Virus record (IMG/VR): IMGVR_UViG_3300018080_000180
Coordinates: 368-64,367 of that record
Direction: 5' to 3' (one strand)
Length of the DNA stretch: 64,000 nucleotides
Source of the DNA: a virus
Taxonomy: Duplodnaviria; Caudoviricetes
Shown here: piece by piece, positions 2,767-9,807 of the stretch
Numbering within the stretch: position 1 is the first letter of the stretch
Layout: each line of letters begins with the position of its first letter
Position numbers and translations under genes: made by a program
The notes under the pieces: generated by a model
The model's database searches: none
What the model saw: the letters and a program-made list of their open reading frames with translations, nothing else
What the model was told of the DNA's origin: nothing

Positions 2767-3717
2767 TTAAAGGTTTTTCCCGAAGGGGCAAAATTGTTTC
2801 GCATCGCAATAGTCTTCGCAGCGGGTGTTCCTTCCGGGGCGCTGCTCGACCGAGTGGCCCCTCCCGAGCTCCAGCGCGAGAGCCGTTGCGTCTGCTTCGT
2901 CGTTGAACACGCGAACAGCCGTCTTCCTTCCTTCCTTATTGACGGCGTAGGTTGTAGGTTTCGCCCACCGCTCTTCCGGGGTGCAGAACGGAAGCTCTTC
3001 GTCCGCGAGCTTACAGGCATTGAAGTGGACCCGGGAACGCGCAACAAGATATTCCTCGGTCGCTTCTTGCGTCCAGAGAGGAACCTTGATGCACTGCTGT
3101 GATGCTGGAGGGTAGTTCGTGTTGCCGGCCTTGCTCTTCTGAAAATCACGATAAAAAGTATTGATCTTCAGAGCATTCACCGGGAAGCCGAGCAGTCGAA
3201 ACGCAAACGCATAGCAGTTCAGCTGACGTTCCCACTCGGGCTTGGATCCACCGTCACTGTAAACGATGCTCCAGACCGAGGTGACCTTGTGGTCCTCGAC
3301 AACACCGTCGACCCCGTCATAACAGTCGGACTTGCCGGACACGTAATAACTGTTGGGGTCGTAGTTCTCGGTCTCCCAGAACTTTACGTTGCCGTCGACA
3401 GTGTAGAGCCGCTGCTTGACAAGGTCATAGAACCAGCGCTCTTCGCTGAGGCGCTCGGCGTTCGGGTTACCTTTAGCTGCAAGGCGCTCGACCGTGTTGT
3501 GGGCTGCGCTTCCAATGAACAGCCACGTAAACTCGGTGGCATCCTTAGCAATCTTGTCCCGGTGGCGATCGACGAGGATCTTGGGACGGGGGGCGTCGAT
3601 AAGCTGTGTTACCGACAGGACGTTGTCTGGTGCTTTGACCAGATCATACTCTTCGACATACGCCTTGATGGCATCCACCACTGTGGGCGACAGGTTAAAA
3701 TTGTTGGTGATTATCAT
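2767..3717 (-). CDS. PD-(D/E)xK exonuclease (RecB/Cas4-like), ERF partner
   Basis: GSAAH, VSGKSD, EDHKVT, QLNCY, C-terminal CxxYCxxxxFC. Confidence 0.8.
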   Translation of the reverse strand: MIITNNFNLSPTVVDAIKAYVEEYDLVKAPDNVLSVTQLIDAPRPKILVDRHRDKIAKDATEFTWLFIGSAAHNTVERLAAKGNPNAERLSEERWFYDLVKQRLYTVDGNVKFWETENYDPNSYYVSGKSDCYDGVDGVVEDHKVTSVWSIVYSDGGSKPEWERQLNCYAFAFRLLGFPVNALKINTFYRDFQKSKAGNTNYPPASQQCIKVPLWTQEATEEYLVARSRVHFNACKLADEELPFCTPEERWAKPTTYAVNKEGRKTAVRVFNDEADATALALELGRGHSVEQRPGRNTRCEDYCDAKQFCPFGKNL

Positions 3718-3935
3718 TGCTCCACTCCTTTGCGCGAGAGTGTTAAGGGTTTATTTGTGCAATAGGGACATCCCCTCAGCCGCCTCTGTGATCCGCACTT
3801 TTTACAGGTTGTCGCTTCCCAACGATCGGCCATCATGTCGACCATTCGCGGCTGACTCACCTTGTTTTTGGCAGCCAGCTTCTTTACCCGTTTCTGGGTA
3901 TCGATGTCGACTGATACGGTTGTCTGGTTGGCCAT
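3714..3935 (-). CDS. Ribbon-helix-helix-like DNA-binding protein with Zn finger (candidate repressor)
   Basis: TTVSVDIDTQKRVKKLAAKNKVSQPRMVD plus CKKC...CPYC; AAGGAGG SD. Confidence 0.6.
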   Translation of the reverse strand: MANQTTVSVDIDTQKRVKKLAAKNKVSQPRMVDMMADRWEATTCKKCGSQRRLRGCPYCTNKPLTLSRKGVEQ

Positions 3936-3960
3936 CTATCCTCCTTCGTGGTTGTTGTCA

Positions 3961-4085
3961 GGTCAGGCGACAGGGAGTCAAACCCTGCAATTTTTCACAG
4001 ACACGTCGGCCTGCTACACCTTTCGCCCGTCGGTTACTCAGTCACGGGGGATTCCCGTGTCCCTTACTCCCTTGGATACTGCCCG
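3961..4085 (-). ncRNA. tRNA-like RNA with enlarged central region
   Basis: Acceptor CGGGCAG/TCGCCTG-A-CC, T-arm CAGGG-TTTGACT-CCCTG, D-like TCC/GGA; lies just downstream of a promoter. Confidence 0.45.
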
Positions 4086-4099
4086 ATAGTCTCAATTAG

Positions 4100-4129
4100 A
4101 TTATACTTGATTCCCAATTGAGAGTCAAT
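4100..4129 (-). promoter_or_regulatory. Promoter with ATTGA-N3-TCAATTG operator
   Basis: TTGACT-17-TATAAT. Confidence 0.85.
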
Positions 4130-4134
4130 AGAAA

Positions 4135-4395
4135 TCAGACCGGCTGGAACCCTGTCAGACAGAGCCCCAGATCGTCCAGTTCGTACTCGATTTCCTGCCC
4201 GACAACCCTGCTCACATCGACTCCGTGTCCCGGGACAATGCAGCCGAAGCATGCATCCAGCGCCCGGATGAGCGGCCCGTCATCGGCGTGCAGCACCCCC
4301 AGCTCTCCGTTGTGGTCCTCGACCACCAGCGTGGCAATGCCGCTGCCCCAGCTGCCCCAGCTGGCCCTCAGTCCTTTAATAGTTGCGCGTGCCAT
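4135..4395 (-). CDS. Hypothetical protein (86 aa)
   Basis: AAGGAGG SD, clean ORF. Confidence 0.75.
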   Translation of the reverse strand: MARATIKGLRASWGSWGSGIATLVVEDHNGELGVLHADDGPLIRALDACFGCIVPGHGVDVSRVVGQEIEYELDDLGLCLTGFQPV

Positions 4396-4424
4396 CTCAG
4401 CCCTCCTTTTTATGGTTGTTCCCC

Positions 4425-6914
4425 TTATCCGTAGATCCGGGTGTAAAGTTCCTGCCCTAGCTGCCGGCGGTACTTCTTCAAGATCTTCTTGCCGACAACC
4501 GCCTGCTTGGGAGTCAGGCTCAGCTGGTGCGCAAGACTGTTGCCTATACGTGTATCGCAGCCGTTGTAGCCCACATCGTTGCGGAAGCTGGCATGATCAC
4601 TGTCGAACCCGGAGATGTACTTCAGGCCCTCATGGATTGCCTCTACGTCCGCCTTGGTGAGGCCCACGGCCTCCAGCGTGATCTGCTTCCGGGTCAGGTT
4701 GTTGGTGGTCGGCTGAGCGCCCGGGGTGACCGGCTCGGGCTCGACGACTTCGTCCAGCGCCCTGTCGATGACGGCCTGCTTGTTAACGATCGTCTTGGCA
4801 ATCGTGCAGTCGAGGCTCTCCTCCAGCACAAGGTGATAGATATTGACGCTATCCTTCTGGCCGATGCGGTGGCAGCGGTCCTCTGCCTGCGTGACATTCC
4901 CGGGAACCCAGTCGAGCTCCGTGAAGATGACCGTGGAGGCTGCGGTGAGCGTGAGGCCTACGCCGGCAGCCGTGATGGATCCGATGAAGACCTTGACCGC
5001 AGGATCCCTCTGGAAGCGATCCACGGCGTCCTGCCGGTCAGCTTGCGCCGTCTGCCCAGTCAGGACTACCGCAGAATCGCCAAAGGCCTGCTTGAGGCCT
5101 TTTACGACGTCATGGTGATGAGCGAACACCACCACCTTGTCGATGCTCTCCAGCTGCTCTTTGATGAAGTCGATGCACTGCGGGATCTTCTGGACCGCCG
5201 TGTCGTGCCGCAGCCTTGCGATCTCGGTGAAGGCTGCCGTGGCTGCGTGCCGCAGGAGCCTCACAGCGTCCTTGTATTCGCTTTCGTTGTCGGATGCCTT
5301 GGCCAGCTCCACATTGGCCTTGAGCTCCTCCAGCCGCGCTTCGTTGCGCTTCGAGGCCTCAATCTCGGCCCTGACCGCCCGGGCTCCCTCGCCATCGGCC
5401 GACAGCTCGATGACCGTCCGACGCTTTGCCGGGAGCTCCTTGAGCACGTCCTTCTTGAGACGACGGCAGAGGATGCTCTCGCGCAGCTTGTCCTGCAATT
5501 CTGTAAGGTTGCTGGCTTCGCTGAAGTCCCAGCCATAGCGGTTCTGATGAGCGTTGCAGTAGCGCTTCGCGTAAGCAAAAAAGTTGCTGAACAGGTCAGC
5601 CTTGAGGCTGCTCGCAAGAGTCCAGAGCTCAAGCGGCCGGTTGACGATCGGCGTCCCGGTGAGATACAGCCTCCGACTGGCCCGGATGCCCGGGAAGTGG
5701 AAGTTGCTGCGCTTGGTGGACCCAACTACCAGCTGGGTGCGCTTGGCCTTGCTGTTCTTCAGATAATGAGCCTCGTCAACACAAAGAATTGACCAGACAC
5801 CCGACTCAGATACATTTCTCCAACTAATGAGTATATCGTAATTAATTATCAAAACAAAAACAGGAGAACCACCATGGCCAGACCCGCAAGAGTAAGTGAC
5901 ACGCAACTCAGAAAACACTTTCAGCTTTTCAAAAAGGGACTGCGCGTACCTGAGGTTGCCAAGATGCTTGGCATCAGGGGAAGCACCTTGAGGTATCACT
6001 ACTTCAGAATCACGGGCAACAGACTGCGGCTTTTTAGGCGCCACCAGCCCGCGTTTGCTACCCCGAAGAGTGCCACCACTCTTGCCTACATGGCGGGATT
6101 TATCGACGGCGACGGGTGGATTACCATTACCAAAACTGCCGCCCAAATTGGAATTTCCAGCGTTGACAAATCGGTCGTTGATTTCTTTCTGAAATATGGG
6201 GGACTCTATAGTAGCCGACCGGGAAACAGCAGTGGAACAATCAAAGGGGCTCGAACCCAACACATGTGGAGAATAAGCAGAACCTTGGACGTCCTGAACG
6301 CCCTCATAGCCATTCGGCCCTACCTCGTTATTAAAAAGAGAAAGGCCGCTGAAACAATCCAGTACTGCAGGAGAAGGCTTTCCAGATGCAACAGCAGCAA
6401 CTAATGGGCGAGTGCTCCACTTGTCCAGCTCGCGTGCCCAGTTGATCTTCAGGGACGCCGGACAAACCACGAGGACTGTTTTGATCGACTTGTCGAGGTT
6501 GATAATTCCGCAGACCTGTATGGTCTTCCCGAGCCCGGGCTCGTCACCGAGGAGGGTCGAGGGCCGCTGGCTGATGTACTTGATTCCGGCCAGCTGGTAA
6601 GGAAGGTAGCTGAGGCCTTCTGGGGATGGGACAACGAAGTCGGCGCTGACCGAACGGCTGGCTTCGAGAGCCGCCTGTCGCTCCTCTTCAAGCGCCCTGA
6701 GCTCTTCCTGCAGCTCGGGGAGACAGTAGGGCAGGAGCTTGGCCGCCGTCTTAGGCTCCTTCGTGTACCAGACTCTCGCCTGTGGGTTCCACCAGAAGCC
6801 TGCCCCCTTCACGACATCCTTTTCGGAATAGTCGCTGCGAGCGACGAACACCTCCTGCTCGCTCTTGATGTACTTGGTCCAACCCTTCTGAACCGTTTCT
6901 CTGTATACCACCAT
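4425..6914 (-). CDS. SNF2/HARP-like helicase with ~175-aa insertion
   Basis: LGDEPGLGKT, VCPASL, INYDIL, DEAH, LTGTP, GVGLTL, QAEDRCHRIGQ; N-terminal DUF5710-like WNPQARVWY. Confidence 0.92.
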   Translation of the reverse strand: MVVYRETVQKGWTKYIKSEQEVFVARSDYSEKDVVKGAGFWWNPQARVWYTKEPKTAAKLLPYCLPELQEELRALEEERQAALEASRSVSADFVVPSPEGLSYLPYQLAGIKYISQRPSTLLGDEPGLGKTIQVCGIINLDKSIKTVLVVCPASLKINWARELDKWSTRPLVAAVASGKPSPAVLDCFSGLSLFNNEVGPNGYEGVQDVQGSAYSPHVLGSSPFDCSTAVSRSATIESPIFQKEINDRFVNAGNSNLGGSFGNGNPPVAVDKSRHVGKSGGTLRGSKRGLVAPKKPQSVARDSEVVIPQGASPDAKHLGNLRYAQSLFEKLKVFSELRVTYSCGSGHGGSPVFVLIINYDILISWRNVSESGVWSILCVDEAHYLKNSKAKRTQLVVGSTKRSNFHFPGIRASRRLYLTGTPIVNRPLELWTLASSLKADLFSNFFAYAKRYCNAHQNRYGWDFSEASNLTELQDKLRESILCRRLKKDVLKELPAKRRTVIELSADGEGARAVRAEIEASKRNEARLEELKANVELAKASDNESEYKDAVRLLRHAATAAFTEIARLRHDTAVQKIPQCIDFIKEQLESIDKVVVFAHHHDVVKGLKQAFGDSAVVLTGQTAQADRQDAVDRFQRDPAVKVFIGSITAAGVGLTLTAASTVIFTELDWVPGNVTQAEDRCHRIGQKDSVNIYHLVLEESLDCTIAKTIVNKQAVIDRALDEVVEPEPVTPGAQPTTNNLTRKQITLEAVGLTKADVEAIHEGLKYISGFDSDHASFRNDVGYNGCDTRIGNSLAHQLSLTPKQAVVGKKILKKYRRQLGQELYTRIYG
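5789..5816 (+). promoter_or_regulatory. Candidate promoter for the antisense endonuclease, inside helicase codons
   Basis: TTGACC-16-TACATT in an AT-rich patch; AGGAGA SD at 5862-5867. Confidence 0.5.
5874..6404 (+). mobile_element. HTH + single-motif LAGLIDADG homing endonuclease nested antisense in the helicase gene
   Basis: LAYMAGFIDGDGWI, QIGISSVDK, YGG, WRIS, IRPYLVIKKRKA; N-terminal HTH; own SD. Confidence 0.9.
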
Positions 6915-6939
6915 CTTGTGCCTCCCACCTTTTTCTTTA

Positions 6940-6970
6940 ATTATACATTGGTGGTCAATTGATTGTCAAT
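6940..6970 (-). promoter_or_regulatory. Promoter with ATTGA-N3-TCAATTG operator
   Basis: TTGACA-18-TATAAT upstream of helicase. Confidence 0.85.
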
Positions 6971-7186
6971 AGTTTTTTCTGGACAGAAGATGTGCTGCAA
7001 TTCGCCATCGATTATCGTGAACTTCTCACCCTTGGCAATAGGGGTGTCGCAGTTGGCGCACCCCCACTGCTTCGAGGCAACTAAAATCGTCTTGGCTGTC
7101 TTGAAGCGATCAGACACCTCGGCGTGTGTCTTGAAGAGTATTTTTAGCGTATACTCCTCGATATCGATCGCTGTGTGTTTACGCAT
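6941..7186 (-). CDS. Small Zn-finger protein
   Basis: CANC...HIFC; GGAG SD. Confidence 0.6.
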   Translation of the reverse strand: MRKHTAIDIEEYTLKILFKTHAEVSDRFKTAKTILVASKQWGCANCDTPIAKGEKFTIIDGELQHIFCPEKTIDNQLTTNV

Positions 7187-7616
7187 CCCACTCCTCCAGC
7201 GGGGTCACCCCGACTTTTTTGAAGACCGTACAATCCTTGCCATCGATTCCACCGAACTCGTACCGCGACCCCTCGCCAGCCTCATCCAGCAGCTTCTTCA
7301 CCTTTGCCGAGCTGGCGTCGGTGAGTTTGATCAGAAGCCCCTGAGCGCCCACCCGGGTGGCGATACGACACGTCTTATACTTCTTATCCCGAACCACTTC
7401 GAACGCATCCTCTGCCTTCAGGGTATCCGCAGGCTCCCTCTCGCACCACCATGCCGGCTTCCCTGTGGGGTTGCCATCGACATCAAAGATGGGTGTAAAG
7501 CACGTCCTGCTCGGGTCCGACAAACTGGCTGAGCGCCAGTAATTTACACCTCCGCGATCCCGGATCCAGCCACGGATCTTCGGGGCCATGTCAGCTGTGA
7601 TTGTTATCCTTGACAT
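7179..7616 (-). CDS. Hypothetical protein (145 aa, start MSRITI)
   Basis: AAGGAGG SD before ATG 7616. Confidence 0.7.
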   Translation of the reverse strand: MSRITITADMAPKIRGWIRDRGGVNYWRSASLSDPSRTCFTPIFDVDGNPTGKPAWWCEREPADTLKAEDAFEVVRDKKYKTCRIATRVGAQGLLIKLTDASSAKVKKLLDEAGEGSRYEFGGIDGKDCTVFKKVGVTPLEEWDA

Positions 7617-7782
7617 CCTTAGCCTCCTTTGGCCAGATTGCGTCGGCCAGCGCCTTGTATAAAAGTGAAAGATTCGTCTTGTCTTCTGCCGTGATCTCAT
7701 CTCCGACGATGGCCCGAGCAACAGCGTGGAAGGCCGGAATCGCGGCCTTCGAGTCCAGCCACACCACCGTCTCTTTACGCAT
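7591..7782 (-). CDS. Hypothetical protein (63 aa, MRKETVVW)
   Basis: TGATG coupling with upstream gene. Confidence 0.55.
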   Translation of the reverse strand: MRKETVVWLDSKAAIPAFHAVARAIVGDEITAEDKTNLSLLYKALADAIWPKEAKDVKDNNHS

Positions 7783-8693
7783 CACCCCCTTGCAGTTGCC
7801 AGCGCCTCGATCTCTCCGCGCTCGATCTCGTGGCACCCGATCTTCAGAGTACCGTTCACCGAGATTACGGTGTAGCCACCGATGTCGTAACCGTGGGTCA
7901 GCTTGCCACGTTGCAGGAGCTTGTATGCCACGATGGCTTCGCGTTCGGTGACCTCGGCGGAGTCGGACGTCTGGACCGCTGACTCTTCGCGCTTCCTTCC
8001 GTAACCGTCCTCGGTTACTACCCGCAAGAGCTGCGGCCTGAGCCCGTAGATTCTGACGTTGCCGCCAGCACGCCACCGCTCGATCTTCTCCTTCAGGGCC
8101 TCACGCTTCTTGGCGGCAGCCTCAGCCGCACGCTTCCGGAGCTTCGCACGGAGCTCTTCGAGGTCGGTTCCACTAAACTTTTCAGCCAGCTCGTCAACTG
8201 CCTTGAGATCATCGACCGCCTGCTCGCCAAGCTCGAATGCTTCAACATAAGCGTGAAACTTGTTTCGTTTGTCTTCAGCATAATTCAGTTTCCACTCGAA
8301 GTTCGACCGCGCCCGGGCAGCAGATTCGTACTGCTCGACACACTGCTGCCTAAACCACTCAATGACATTTTTGTGGCTGGCGGTGTCAGCATAACACGTC
8401 CGATAGCTTGCGCCATACCGATCAAACGGGACAACGAAGACACAGTAGTTTGCCGGGATTGCACCGCGCACAATGCCCTGATGCTGACTAGTGCTTACCG
8501 AATAGCTGGCAGCATTGAACAGGACAACTTCACGACCGCTTGGCGTCCGAGTAAACCGTGCGATCGGAAAGTGGCGACCATAAGAGTAGATGACATCACC
8601 CTCAAAAAAAATGTTCCCGGCACGCCCCTCTTCCTGCCTCTTGTTCGCCCAGTAGTGGGCGACCTCTGCATGGTTCCTTAACCTTTTCCGCAT
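7782..8693 (-). CDS. Conserved hypothetical early phage protein
   Basis: GAGGAGG SD; IYSYGRHFPIA and LKIGCHEI motifs; first gene after promoter. Confidence 0.85.
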   Translation of the reverse strand: MRKRLRNHAEVAHYWANKRQEEGRAGNIFFEGDVIYSYGRHFPIARFTRTPSGREVVLFNAASYSVSTSQHQGIVRGAIPANYCVFVVPFDRYGASYRTCYADTASHKNVIEWFRQQCVEQYESAARARSNFEWKLNYAEDKRNKFHAYVEAFELGEQAVDDLKAVDELAEKFSGTDLEELRAKLRKRAAEAAAKKREALKEKIERWRAGGNVRIYGLRPQLLRVVTEDGYGRKREESAVQTSDSAEVTEREAIVAYKLLQRGKLTHGYDIGGYTVISVNGTLKIGCHEIERGEIEALATARG

Positions 8694-8725
8694 ATCAAAC
8701 CTCCTCGGGTTGTGGTTTTATTTTA

Positions 8726-8756
8726 ATTATACATTGATTTTCAATTGAAAGTCAAT
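8726..8756 (-). promoter_or_regulatory. Promoter with ATTGA-N3-TCAATTG operator
   Basis: TTGACT-18-TATAAT. Confidence 0.85.
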
Positions 8757-8767
8757 AGGTTTATACG

Positions 8768-8795
8768 AAAAAAAGCCCCGGGAATCCCGAGGCTC
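8768..8795 (-). terminator. Intrinsic terminator ending the late/lysis operon
   Basis: AGCCTCGGG-ATT-CCCGGGGCT followed by T-tract. Confidence 0.85.
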
Positions 8796-8820
8796 ATAAC
8801 ACATTGATTTTTATGGAGTA

Positions 8821-9807
8821 CTAAACGCAGTCAATTCTGTGAAAATCGTCCCGTTCGCAGAAATGAGTGATCAAAGCATGCGGAGACGGCGGCCTCTTGT
8901 CCCATTGTTTCGGATAATCCTTGAGTCCGTACCGTTTACAAACAGTAAATACATTTTCACTGCAGAAGTCACGCTTGGGGTTCTGTCGAACCCACGGGAA
9001 CCATCGACGTACCGCCGGCACGAAGGGCAGTAACCCACGCCAGTCATACTTCCTGCGGTTGCGACGCAGACGGGCAAGGTGCGCCTGTGCTGCATAGCGC
9101 ACCTCTTCATCGTCAAACCCGTCCCACCGCCACACTGAGTGCATCCTGTCCCAGCGTTTCTTGTATTTGTCAAACGAGCTTTCGACGAATCCACGAGGTG
9201 TCGCCTCCGATGCGAAGTACTGCCCGTGATCTTCGGTGGCAAATCCGGTATGTGTCGGGATGTCCATATCAAACATCTTGTGGATCCCGTTGACAGTCAT
9301 TCGGATAATCGCACCACTTGGCTTTGCGCTGGTGGTAAAGAAGACGTCCGTGCCGCGCATCTTGTCAGGGCGCACCGGGAGCTTCTTGTCGATCACCACG
9401 GGCGCCTCTACCGGGACCGTGGTGTTTACGTAGACCTTGATCATCTCCTGCCGCTGCAGGGTGTCATCGAGAGCCTTGCGGAGCTTGGAAGCCGTAGTCC
9501 CGATTGTCACGATACAACCGAGAGATCCGCCCTTCCCGCCGTCCGGGTGAATGAGATAGTGGGACCACTCTCCCTCGGGGGTCCACATCCGGATCTTCCA
9601 GCCTTCACCCTCTTCGACCACCATCCCGGGTTCGGTCGTATCCACCGACGGCTCCCGAATCGTCCACACTCCGGGGCGAATGACGTTGACCAGCTCGCCA
9701 TCGGTGTTGATACTTCCACTGCGACAGTCGAACGAAAGCCCCTCCATGCAAATGAGCTTACCGAAGCCACGCTCGTCGTATTTAAACTGGATATACTTTT
9801 CCTTCAT
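8821..9807 (-). CDS. Putative endolysin: YkuD/L,D-transpeptidase-like domain + permuted papain-like (YiiX/NlpC-P60) domain
   Basis: YLIHPDGGKGGSLGCIV; PTHTGF...YDWRGL...FCSENV; next to holin-like gene. Confidence 0.65.
   Translation of the reverse strand: MKEKYIQFKYDERGFGKLICMEGLSFDCRSGSINTDGELVNVIRPGVWTIREPSVDTTEPGMVVEEGEGWKIRMWTPEGEWSHYLIHPDGGKGGSLGCIVTIGTTASKLRKALDDTLQRQEMIKVYVNTTVPVEAPVVIDKKLPVRPDKMRGTDVFFTTSAKPSGAIIRMTVNGIHKMFDMDIPTHTGFATEDHGQYFASEATPRGFVESSFDKYKKRWDRMHSVWRWDGFDDEEVRYAAQAHLARLRRNRRKYDWRGLLPFVPAVRRWFPWVRQNPKRDFCSENVFTVCKRYGLKDYPKQWDKRPPSPHALITHFCERDDFHRIDCV

Follow-up and report, generated by a model that had tools for sequence, protein, structure and literature searches.

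Homing endonuclease genes (HEGs) are, to our knowledge, thought to persist in essential genes only by way of self-splicing introns, inteins or intergenic positions, and antisense HEGs occur in introns of nuclear ribosomal DNA. In phage Aeh1, the free-standing endonuclease gene mobE splits its host gene nrdA, an arrangement described as "genes in pieces" (PMC2988022). In mycobacteriophage DNA methylases, an HNH endonuclease that is out of frame and on the same strand is hidden within an in-frame, non-splicing insert called the ShiLan domain (Arsenault, Gosselin and Gogarten 2025, PMC11855218; the forerunner of that study dates from 2023, PMC9957025). Here, we describe a LAGLIDADG HEG that lies antisense, and in exact codon register, inside the open frame of a Snf2-family helicase gene in IMG/VR virus record IMGVR_UViG_3300018080_000180 (Duplodnaviria; Caudoviricetes). 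The stretch analyzed, hereafter the window, comprises 64,000 nucleotides (nt) (positions 368 to 64,367 of the record), that is, nearly the whole of a complete 64,367-bp viral genome with direct terminal repeats. An earlier note on this DNA, made from the sequence alone, had reported an endonuclease open reading frame (ORF) antisense to an open helicase ORF, and the present analysis confirmed that observation.

An endonuclease gene in antisense codon register within a helicase gene

The ORF map, Pfam searches and alignments bore out that a 176-amino-acid (aa) ORF with a helix-turn-helix (HTH) domain and a LAGLIDADG motif lies antisense between helicase motif Ia and the DEAH box, and that the helicase frame stays open across it as a single ORF of 829 codons (Table 1). 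Given that 6914 − 5876 = 1,038 = 346 × 3, each plus-strand codon coincides with one minus-strand codon. The exact register was verified by script at all four loci with this arrangement (the window and the loci L082, L083 and L084, described below). The codons TTA, CTA and TCA, whose complements are stops, were absent from the endonuclease ORF. Its 15 leucine codons were CTT (5), CTC (4), CTG (4) and TTG (2), and its 14 serine codons were AGC (7), AGT (4), TCC (2) and TCG (1). Both the register and the missing codons had been claimed in the earlier note, and coordinate arithmetic and the codon count agreed with it.

Alignment with insert-free helicase homologs (ca. 640 to 680 aa) mapped the extra residues between the native strand LVAAVA (residues 171 to 176) and the strand VFVLIINY (352 to 358). 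The insert itself stood, but its size came to ca. 165 residues (181 to 346) instead of the ca. 175 non-helicase residues first proposed. At the same site, insert-free relatives have 12 to 17 residues versus 181 in the window. At the nucleotide level, 543 nt separate "RPL" from "VVIVNYD" in the window, compared to 3 to 84 nt in the 78 of 80 insert-free viral loci with both flanks detected (36 to 84 nt in 76 of them). With 531 nt, the endonuclease ORF exceeds the insert (ca. 498 nt) in length. Its last nine codons and stop lie opposite the native helicase beta-strand following motif Ia, and its Shine-Dalgarno (SD) and promoter-like sites lie opposite the native helicase codons SPV...NYD...DEAH.

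As for a possible misassembly, raised in the earlier note, a 48,441-nt Logan contig from sequencing run X1 covers positions 4400 to 6950, showing 0 differences from the window and crossing the insert without a joint; X1 is possibly the window's own source sample and is therefore not an independent confirmation of the assembly. Runs X2 and X3 gave short conserved pieces only. No contig omitting the insert was found among the matching sequencing runs, so that neither an empty allele nor splicing was visible in them. The long neighboring ORFs (2767 to 9807) are all on the minus strand, which makes the endonuclease gene a lone head-on gene.

Table 1. Features of the nested locus in the window, followed by intron-borne relatives of the endonuclease (coordinates of the latter refer to their own loci; GC, guanine plus cytosine content)
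Feature	Position	Strand	Remarks
Snf2-family helicase ORF	4425..6914	-	829 aa, open across insert; single SNF2/Helicase_C match in the 64,367-bp genome
HTH + single-motif LAGLIDADG homing endonuclease ORF	5874..6404	+	176 aa plus stop; exact antiparallel codon register with helicase
LAGLIDADG motif LAYMAGFIDGDG	6081..6116	+	endonuclease residues 70-81
Extra DNA relative to insert-free helicases	5877..6374		ca. 498 nt; helicase residues ca. 181-346; ends ± a few codons
Dual-coding overlap	6375..6404		last 9 endonuclease codons + stop opposite helicase residues 171-180 (LVAAVASGKP)
SD-like AGGAGA	5862..5867	+	6 nt 5' of endonuclease ATG, opposite helicase codons S-P-V
Sigma-70-like TTGACC-16-TACATT	5789..5816	+	inside helicase codons W-S-I-L ... 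N-V-S
AT-rich recoded helicase codons VLIINYD...DEAH	5766..5852	-	5' region of endonuclease gene on the opposite strand
Helicase motif I GLGKT	6522..6536	-	residues 127-131, intact (alignment)
Helicase motif II DEAH	5766..5777	-	residues 380-383, intact (alignment)
Antisense intron-borne relatives with few or no TTA/CTA/TCA	L132/L215 2437-2964; L244 2770-3192; L295 2962-3423; L210 1614-2030		31-41% GC
Further antisense intron-borne relatives, likewise avoiding TTA/CTA/TCA			L115, L130, L229, L185, L230, L200, L324, L355; 31-41% GC

The endonuclease and its helicase host

Judging from its homologs, predicted fold and motif, the plus-strand ORF is a real endonuclease gene. It matched PHROG 5046 with an E value of 1e-12, and an exhaustive HMMER search of 1.84 billion representatives returned 841 homologs at E ≤ 1e-3, of which 33 reached E ≤ 1e-10. 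Full-length identity, the N-terminal HTH included, was 40 to 45% for the four best. The AlphaFold2 model, built on a 58-sequence alignment, had a predicted local distance difference test (pLDDT) score of 92.6; it predicted a three-helix N-domain followed by an alpha-beta-beta-alpha-beta-beta-alpha core (H67-80, E81-85, E90-96, H99-106, E111-115, E129-134 and H137-150). The best Foldseek matches were to I-CreI (E value of 3e-6, probability of 1.00), and the motif AGFIDGDG aligned with those of I-CreI and I-MsoI. Residues D78, G79 and G81 were invariant in alignments of 8 to 11 relatives; in the 58-sequence alignment, D78 was invariant and G79 and G81 nearly so. As is established for this family, a single LAGLIDADG motif would imply a homodimer.

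A word-based search of a 5.8-billion-protein collection gave zero matches to the endonuclease. The query itself was also absent from that collection, which indicates that gene callers miss this ORF. Among deposited phages, a protein search with the endonuclease returned six weak partial matches from four phages (two of them deposited twice), none of them nested, and no cultured phage with the nested arrangement was found there.

The host protein was assigned to PHROG 62 ("DNA helicase") and matched PF00176 (SNF2-related; E value of 1.7e-32, split into two stretches) and PF00271 (Helicase_C; 1.3e-15). Helicase motifs I, II, III and VI (GLGKT, DEAH, TGTP and QxExRxxRIG) were invariant in the alignment, and an insert-free homolog (P0002) matched solved Snf2-family ATPases in the PDB (SRCAP, SWR1 and 1z63). 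AlphaFold2 modeled a confident core, with both insert-flanking strands also confident, and gave insert residues 191 to 323 a pLDDT of 24 to 34. Taking together the retained motifs, the confident predicted core and the fact that this is the only SNF2 gene in the phage genome, the helicase looks alive. A nucleotide search with the helicase among deposited phages gave only short, distant matches. One helicase homolog of 795 aa (P0114) owes its length to a duplicated N-terminal DUF5710-like module and has no insert at the endonuclease site.

Recurrence at the same helicase site

We collected 232 loci carrying a member of the endonuclease family from viral, metagenome and genome scans. Helicase flanks were present only in L082, L083 and L084, the three best IMG/VR matches (tblastn identities of 48, 30 and 29%); L083 is the same contig as L164, the sole helicase-nested match of the metagenome and genome scans. 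All three have the endonuclease gene antisense and in register 0 at the helicase site used in the window. Their helicase frames are open over 819, 867 and 794 codons, respectively, and L082 and L083 also have a single undivided helicase ORF. One and the same helicase column, the fifth residue past the W of "KW," faces the endonuclease stop in all four loci, and the start lies 0 to 10 codons ahead of the NYD strand. A fifth helicase, P0007 (792 aa), known from the protein alone, likewise contains an open insert there, of comparable length. Its helicase-frame peptide PINDPGDVG would, under the genetic code, be compatible with an antisense AY(I/V)AGIIDG. The search for other antisense in-frame insertions, suggested in the earlier note, thus yielded three loci plus the open insert of P0007. 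Stops in the helicase frame of relatives, which the note had named as the mark of a pseudogene, did not appear across the endonuclease in any of the three. An extra viral-contig scan centered on P0121 to P0124 gave no new helicase-nested copy.

In L084, the helicase carries 9 extra nt with an in-frame TAA among them inside motif I (DEMG*IGLGKT, with the asterisk for the stop; L084 3640 to 3665, minus strand). The gene may be broken, the assembly may be in error, or the extra nt may be a footprint.

Stop avoidance and the constrained frame

Codon usage tallied over 37 ORFs of the phage (16,804 codons) led us to expect 2.6 antisense stops in the window, with a probability of 0.065 of finding none. 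The corresponding probabilities with local codon usage were 0.11 for L082, 0.025 for L083 and 1.3e-5 for L084, from codon tables of only one to five local ORFs each. Among the other distinct relatives (ORFs of at least 130 codons), 169 of 179 had stops in the complementary frame, with a median of 8, and stop-free relatives amounted to 0 of 17 at a GC of 0.5 to 0.6 and 0 of 44 at 0.4 to 0.6. The avoidance is confined to the three stop-complement codons, as ATA, GTA, CCA, ACA and GCA all occur. Moreover, the four endonucleases are only 27 to 47% identical, so that few codons can be shared by descent.

Identity was higher in the endonuclease frame than in the helicase frame in six of six pairs (47% versus 28% for the window and L082), and differences by codon position followed the order 3 > 1 > 2 in the endonuclease frame in all six. 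A homolog search with the helicase-frame insert peptide found only the query itself. This peptide was 15 to 28% identical between copies, its sole conserved stretch being the shadow of the LAGLIDADG motif. Together, the conservation of the endonuclease frame and the homolog-less peptide opposite it indicate that the helicase frame is constrained only to stay open.

Candidate expression signals in helicase codons

The SD sequence and candidate promoter that the earlier note had placed in AT-rich helicase codons were both recovered. The promoter-like site was the only one between 5600 and 6700 (mean of 0.4 in shuffled sequences), and the helicase codons in which the two signals lie have a GC of 0.37, compared to 0.62 for the gene body. 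The 87-nt NYD-to-DEAH segment had a GC 0.14 to 0.25 below that of the gene body in four of four insert-bearing loci; in the insert-free control (the same segment in 58 loci), the mean difference was −0.014 (standard deviation, 0.076; minimum, −0.13). A −35-like hexamer, TTGAC(C/A), was common to the window and L082, opposite helicase residues S-I-L, where insert-free helicases have D-L-L. Likeness in the flanks was 0.28 between insert-bearing and insert-free helicases versus 0.40 to 0.41 among insert-free ones, while for the rest of the protein the values were 0.51 and 0.54. The extra flank divergence fits altered constraints.

A perfect 10-bp palindrome, TAATTAATTA, occurs at window positions 5839 to 5848, 26 nt before the endonuclease ATG, and is made from the helicase I-N-Y codons. 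It is a candidate for part of a symmetric target of a homodimeric enzyme.

Search for splicing or transposition features

The earlier note had seen no intein end and little room for an intron core, which Pfam, junction alignment, Rfam, flank profiles and an insert no longer than the ORF all corroborated. Pfam detected no intein or Hint domain in the helicase, and the junctions of the five insert-bearing sequences had no conserved Cys/Ser/Thr or His-Asn. Rfam found no intron at E ≤ 10 between 5300 and 6900 and none at the gathering score in L082 to L084, but its sensitivity here was low, with 1 of 10 intron-borne loci detected, and that one below threshold. Profiles of the intron flanks, made from intron-borne relatives of the endonuclease (see below), matched five control loci with E values of 1e-8 to 1e-56; on the window and L082 to L084, they gave only matches of E ≥ 5, at other places. 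The intron-borne relatives carry ca. 240 to 280 nt of extra conserved sequence, while in the helicase insert nothing is left over once the ORF is accounted for. The insert ends showed no consistent direct or inverted repeats and hence no sign of transposition. Compared with shuffled sequences, folding of the window insert RNA gave a z score of −0.27.

Two proteins of the same helicase family, P0058 and P0107, harbor canonical LAGLIDADG inteins (PF14528 and PF14890). The intein of P0058 follows the AEDR of motif VI, and its +1 residue is Cys. The helicase family is thus a repeated target of different mobile elements. In the minimum-energy fold of the L082 insert RNA, the two helicase flanks pair with each other, which is not the case for the window insert.

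Intron-borne relatives avoid the same codons

Ten of the 179 other family ORFs were stop-free on the complementary frame, nine of them at only 31 to 38% GC. Those nine lie antisense inside group I introns, recognized by their conserved flanks, with one sub-threshold Rfam match to Intron_gpI (L130; 27 bits, E value of 0.006). In four intron-borne loci (L132 = L215, L244, L295 and L210), the interrupted genes are capsid-like. A tblastn search with an N4-gp56-family major capsid protein matched L132/L215, L244 and L210; L295, without a useful capsid E value, was placed by likeness of its translation only, has two antisense stops and is not among the ten.

We assigned the orientation of family members by the intron-flank profiles, for which 10 of the loci had themselves served as building material. 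Of 29 antisense ORFs, 11 had no stop on the complementary frame and 4 had one (range, 0 to 16). With the 10 profile-building loci removed, 19 remained, 2 with none and 4 with one (range, 0 to 16). Among the 24 ORFs in the sense orientation beside the same intron core, none had fewer than two (range, 2 to 14). Read-through from exon 1 is blocked in these introns, by two in-frame stops in the 5' intron part in L244 and by exon 1 being in another frame in L132. The antisense endonucleases in introns thus avoid stops even where no read-through host protein is possible, which implies that the avoidance is selected there too. Such orientation-dependent stop avoidance points to a constraint linking translation and intron-borne genes in phages.

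In L132 (2985 to 3010, minus strand), an SD-like GGAGGAAG precedes an ATG, and this ATG shares nucleotides with the exon-1-frame stop (TAATATG). The frame it opens, of 444 codons, crosses the antisense endonuclease and the intron core and continues in frame with capsid exon 2, an arrangement that looks like termination-reinitiation. Ribosome cover against termination or decay, or shuttling of the cassette between introns and direct in-frame sites, are offered here as ideas only.

The capsid-like gene of L210 (1060 to 2160) apparently has two introns. Beyond the antisense-endonuclease intron come a short exon and then, once more, the conserved sequence of the 5' intron part (translation, ...KFSLIDLDLLAA*). 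In L125, a duplicate of L210, nhmmer shows second, weaker copies of both flank profiles.

History of the insertion

Trees were computed with the insert removed (FastTree, 119 rows; IQ-TREE, 46 rows). The free trees scatter the five insert-bearing helicases, so that five changes are needed, at least four of them forced by starred branches. As a check for co-conversion, we compared the insert-bearing flanks, whose likeness was 0.33 to each other and 0.28 to insert-free ones, values that are not clearly different. Whatever the history, the endonuclease has remained intact while diverging about as far as its host gene, which under the HEG life-cycle model would imply continued homing or a function.

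Interpretation

The reading towards which we lean is that of a cassette that is not spliced out but translated as a disordered loop on the helicase surface, with an antisense endonuclease that uses signals embedded in host codons. The protein loop suggested in the earlier note is kept here as the leading reading because of the open frames in relatives and P0007 and an insert pLDDT below 50; from these we infer, rather than observe, read-through and helicase activity. The compact cassette, with little beyond an ORF, sits antisense and in codon register in the first RecA-like lobe, in a loop that joins two beta-strands. Under this reading, the insert would not be removed, and ribosomes would traverse it in the helicase mRNA, adding ca. 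165 unstructured residues that the ATPase core tolerates. The proposed selection for read-through of the helicase would be what forbids TTA, CTA and TCA in the endonuclease. The endonuclease itself would have an antisense transcript of its own, whose promoter and ribosome-binding site would lie in the AT-recoded helicase codons (NYD...DEAH). As a homodimer, it would cut insert-free helicase alleles of co-infecting relatives at a conserved site, and double-strand-break repair would copy the cassette in, with orientation, register and site inherited along with it.

Several results weigh against this reading. The Pfam scores of the endonuclease fell below the curated cut-offs, with 17.9 bits versus 22.5 for LAGLIDADG_3 and 18.0 versus 23.1 for LAGLIDADG_1. 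For the window alone, the open frame could be due to chance, and the strongest stop-avoidance statistic belongs to L084, with its TAA in motif I; for all the open frame opposite its endonuclease, the helicase of that locus may be dead. Frame continuity over five inserts of differing length is weak evidence, since the insert is almost all ORF and selection on the endonuclease forces multiples of three. The stop avoidance of intron-borne relatives means that open frames are not specific proof of a read-through protein. The L082 insert RNA (2980 to 3570, minus strand) folded with a z score of −4.41, and 0 of 100 shuffles did as well, a result discordant with that for the window insert. The sequencing runs that contain the stretch are DNA runs, with no RNA run listed among them. 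Finally, the approximately unbiased (AU) test did not reject a single insert-bearing clade (difference in log-likelihood of 35.4; P = 0.21). The distribution of the insert was dropped as proof of homing because monophyly was not rejected, and a single old insertion with vertical descent is compatible with the test.

A broader account, which we regard as possible though doubtful, is that antisense HEGs, in group I introns and coding sequences alike, generally keep the codon-register complementary frame stop-free. The helicase cassette would then be an intron endonuclease minus its ribozyme, with real dual coding where the endonuclease tail faces a helicase strand and where the promoter lies in helicase codons, and loss of the ribozyme would have been possible because the complementary frame was already translatable. 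If true, this antisense stop-free rule would give HEGs in essential genes a third, splicing-independent way beside introns and inteins.

The intron-borne relatives also raise the question of whether an unrecognized RNA step removes the insert, that is, whether a very reduced or novel intron overlaps the antisense endonuclease, its frame being open for the same reason as in those relatives. Their position antisense in group I introns of N4-gp56-like capsid genes, with stop-free complementary frames, would suit such a step, as would the folding of the L082 insert RNA with its long-range flank pairing. We nevertheless think it unlikely. Neither Rfam, for all its low sensitivity, nor the flank profiles detected an intron at the helicase loci, and the ca. 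240 to 280 nt found beside the ORF in intron-borne relatives have no counterpart in the insert. Those introns have in-frame stops in the 5' part, whereas in four of four loci the helicase frame is open at either junction, and the folding of the window insert RNA was unremarkable against shuffles. Translation might instead be kept for its own sake, with ribosomes shielding the ca. 500-nt antisense stretch from Rho-dependent termination or RNases and thereby protecting downstream genes. Consistent with this, antisense ORFs with at most one stop complement numbered 6 of 19 once the profile-building loci were removed, against 0 of 24 in the sense orientation (one-sided hypergeometric P of ca. 0.004, calculated by hand). 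The SD-like GGAGGAAG and ATG of L132 open a frame right at the exon-1-frame stop, the L084 frame is open despite the helicase stop, and the genes around the window locus all run on the minus strand. However, Rho involvement is without direct evidence, the upstream TAA of L084 would release ribosomes ca. 70 codons ahead of the insert, and the window, L082, L083 and P0007 retain the helicase motifs and a core predicted with confidence, as for an active enzyme, which leaves shielding by ribosomes with a rather low probability.

That the helicase is inactivated or dispensable, and its open frame a matter of chance or a relic of recent insertion, appears very improbable to us. The chance probability of 0.065 for the window and the stop in motif I of L084 would agree with it, and high-GC genes are often open on the complementary frame (e.g., L239 at a GC of 0.64). 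Yet the four DNA examples, at 27 to 47% endonuclease identity, are all open, one of them at a GC of 0.44 with nine stops expected, and among relatives at a GC of 0.4 to 0.6 not one was stop-free. In addition, the helicase motifs are invariant and the genome offers no second SNF2 gene. Scarcely credible, in turn, is an atypical intein read in the helicase frame. The same helicase family does host canonical inteins (P0058 and P0107), but the insert has no Hint or intein domain, no conserved junction residues in five sequences and no peptide homologs, and the copies share only 15 to 28% identity, with a pLDDT below 50.

A non-spliced, translated cassette, the reading preferred above, suggests a route into essential genes without an intron or intein. 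The locus would also illustrate how antisense dual coding can last over long times in nature, and would mark a place at which Snf2-family ATPases tolerate an insertion. The absence of TTA, CTA and TCA is an easily searched signature that could reveal many mobile elements overlooked by gene callers because host ORFs mask them.

Comparison with known systems

The window enzyme resembles I-CreI and I-MsoI in its AGFIDGDG motif, its alpha-beta-beta-alpha-beta-beta-alpha core and a Foldseek target-normalized template modeling (TM) score of 0.52 to 0.57 over ca. 121 columns. It differs from them in having only ca. 20% identity and an extra N-terminal three-helix HTH domain and in not being intron encoded. 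Group I introns with HEGs come close in that relatives of the window endonuclease lie antisense in phage capsid-gene introns, but the helicase insert has no detectable ribozyme or room for one, and both of its junctions are in frame. The LAGLIDADG inteins of P0058 and P0107 are likewise mobile endonucleases in the same host family that leave the host ORF open. Unlike the window gene, they are on the sense strand and in frame, with a Hint domain and, in P0058, Cys at +1, and they occupy motif VI and not the loop after motif Ia. In nrdA, too, an endonuclease gene (mobE) is inserted into an essential, conserved phage gene with neither intron nor intein. There, however, the host consists of two ORFs with reassembling products and the endonuclease is on the same strand, while here there is a single ORF (PMC2988022).

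The closest parallel is the ShiLan domain. In both cases, an endonuclease ORF is overprinted on a stop-free insert with no detectable intein or intron, no function is known for the host-frame peptide, which is predicted to form a loop or be disordered, and the distribution is disjunct (PMC11855218). ShiLan endonucleases are of the HNH class and are encoded on the same strand in another frame, with no detectable ribosome-binding site, in a methylase that its authors call non-essential (PMC11855218). The window gene is on the opposite strand in exact register, encodes a LAGLIDADG enzyme with an HTH domain, has its own SD and promoter-like site and is hosted by the sole Snf2-family helicase gene of the phage. 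The main text of PMC11855218 contains none of the words antisense, reverse, opposite strand and complement, and in the literature accessible to us, which did not include most subscription journals or supplements, we found no antisense in-frame endonuclease in a protein-coding gene. The "further strategy" of the earlier note is therefore not wholly new as a principle, given the published same-strand hidden HNH insert (PMC11855218), and is partly supported here in its antisense registered form. The present case adds this codon-registered arrangement, with a different enzyme class and host gene and in at least four diverged phages, and candidate expression signals of its own in recoded host codons.

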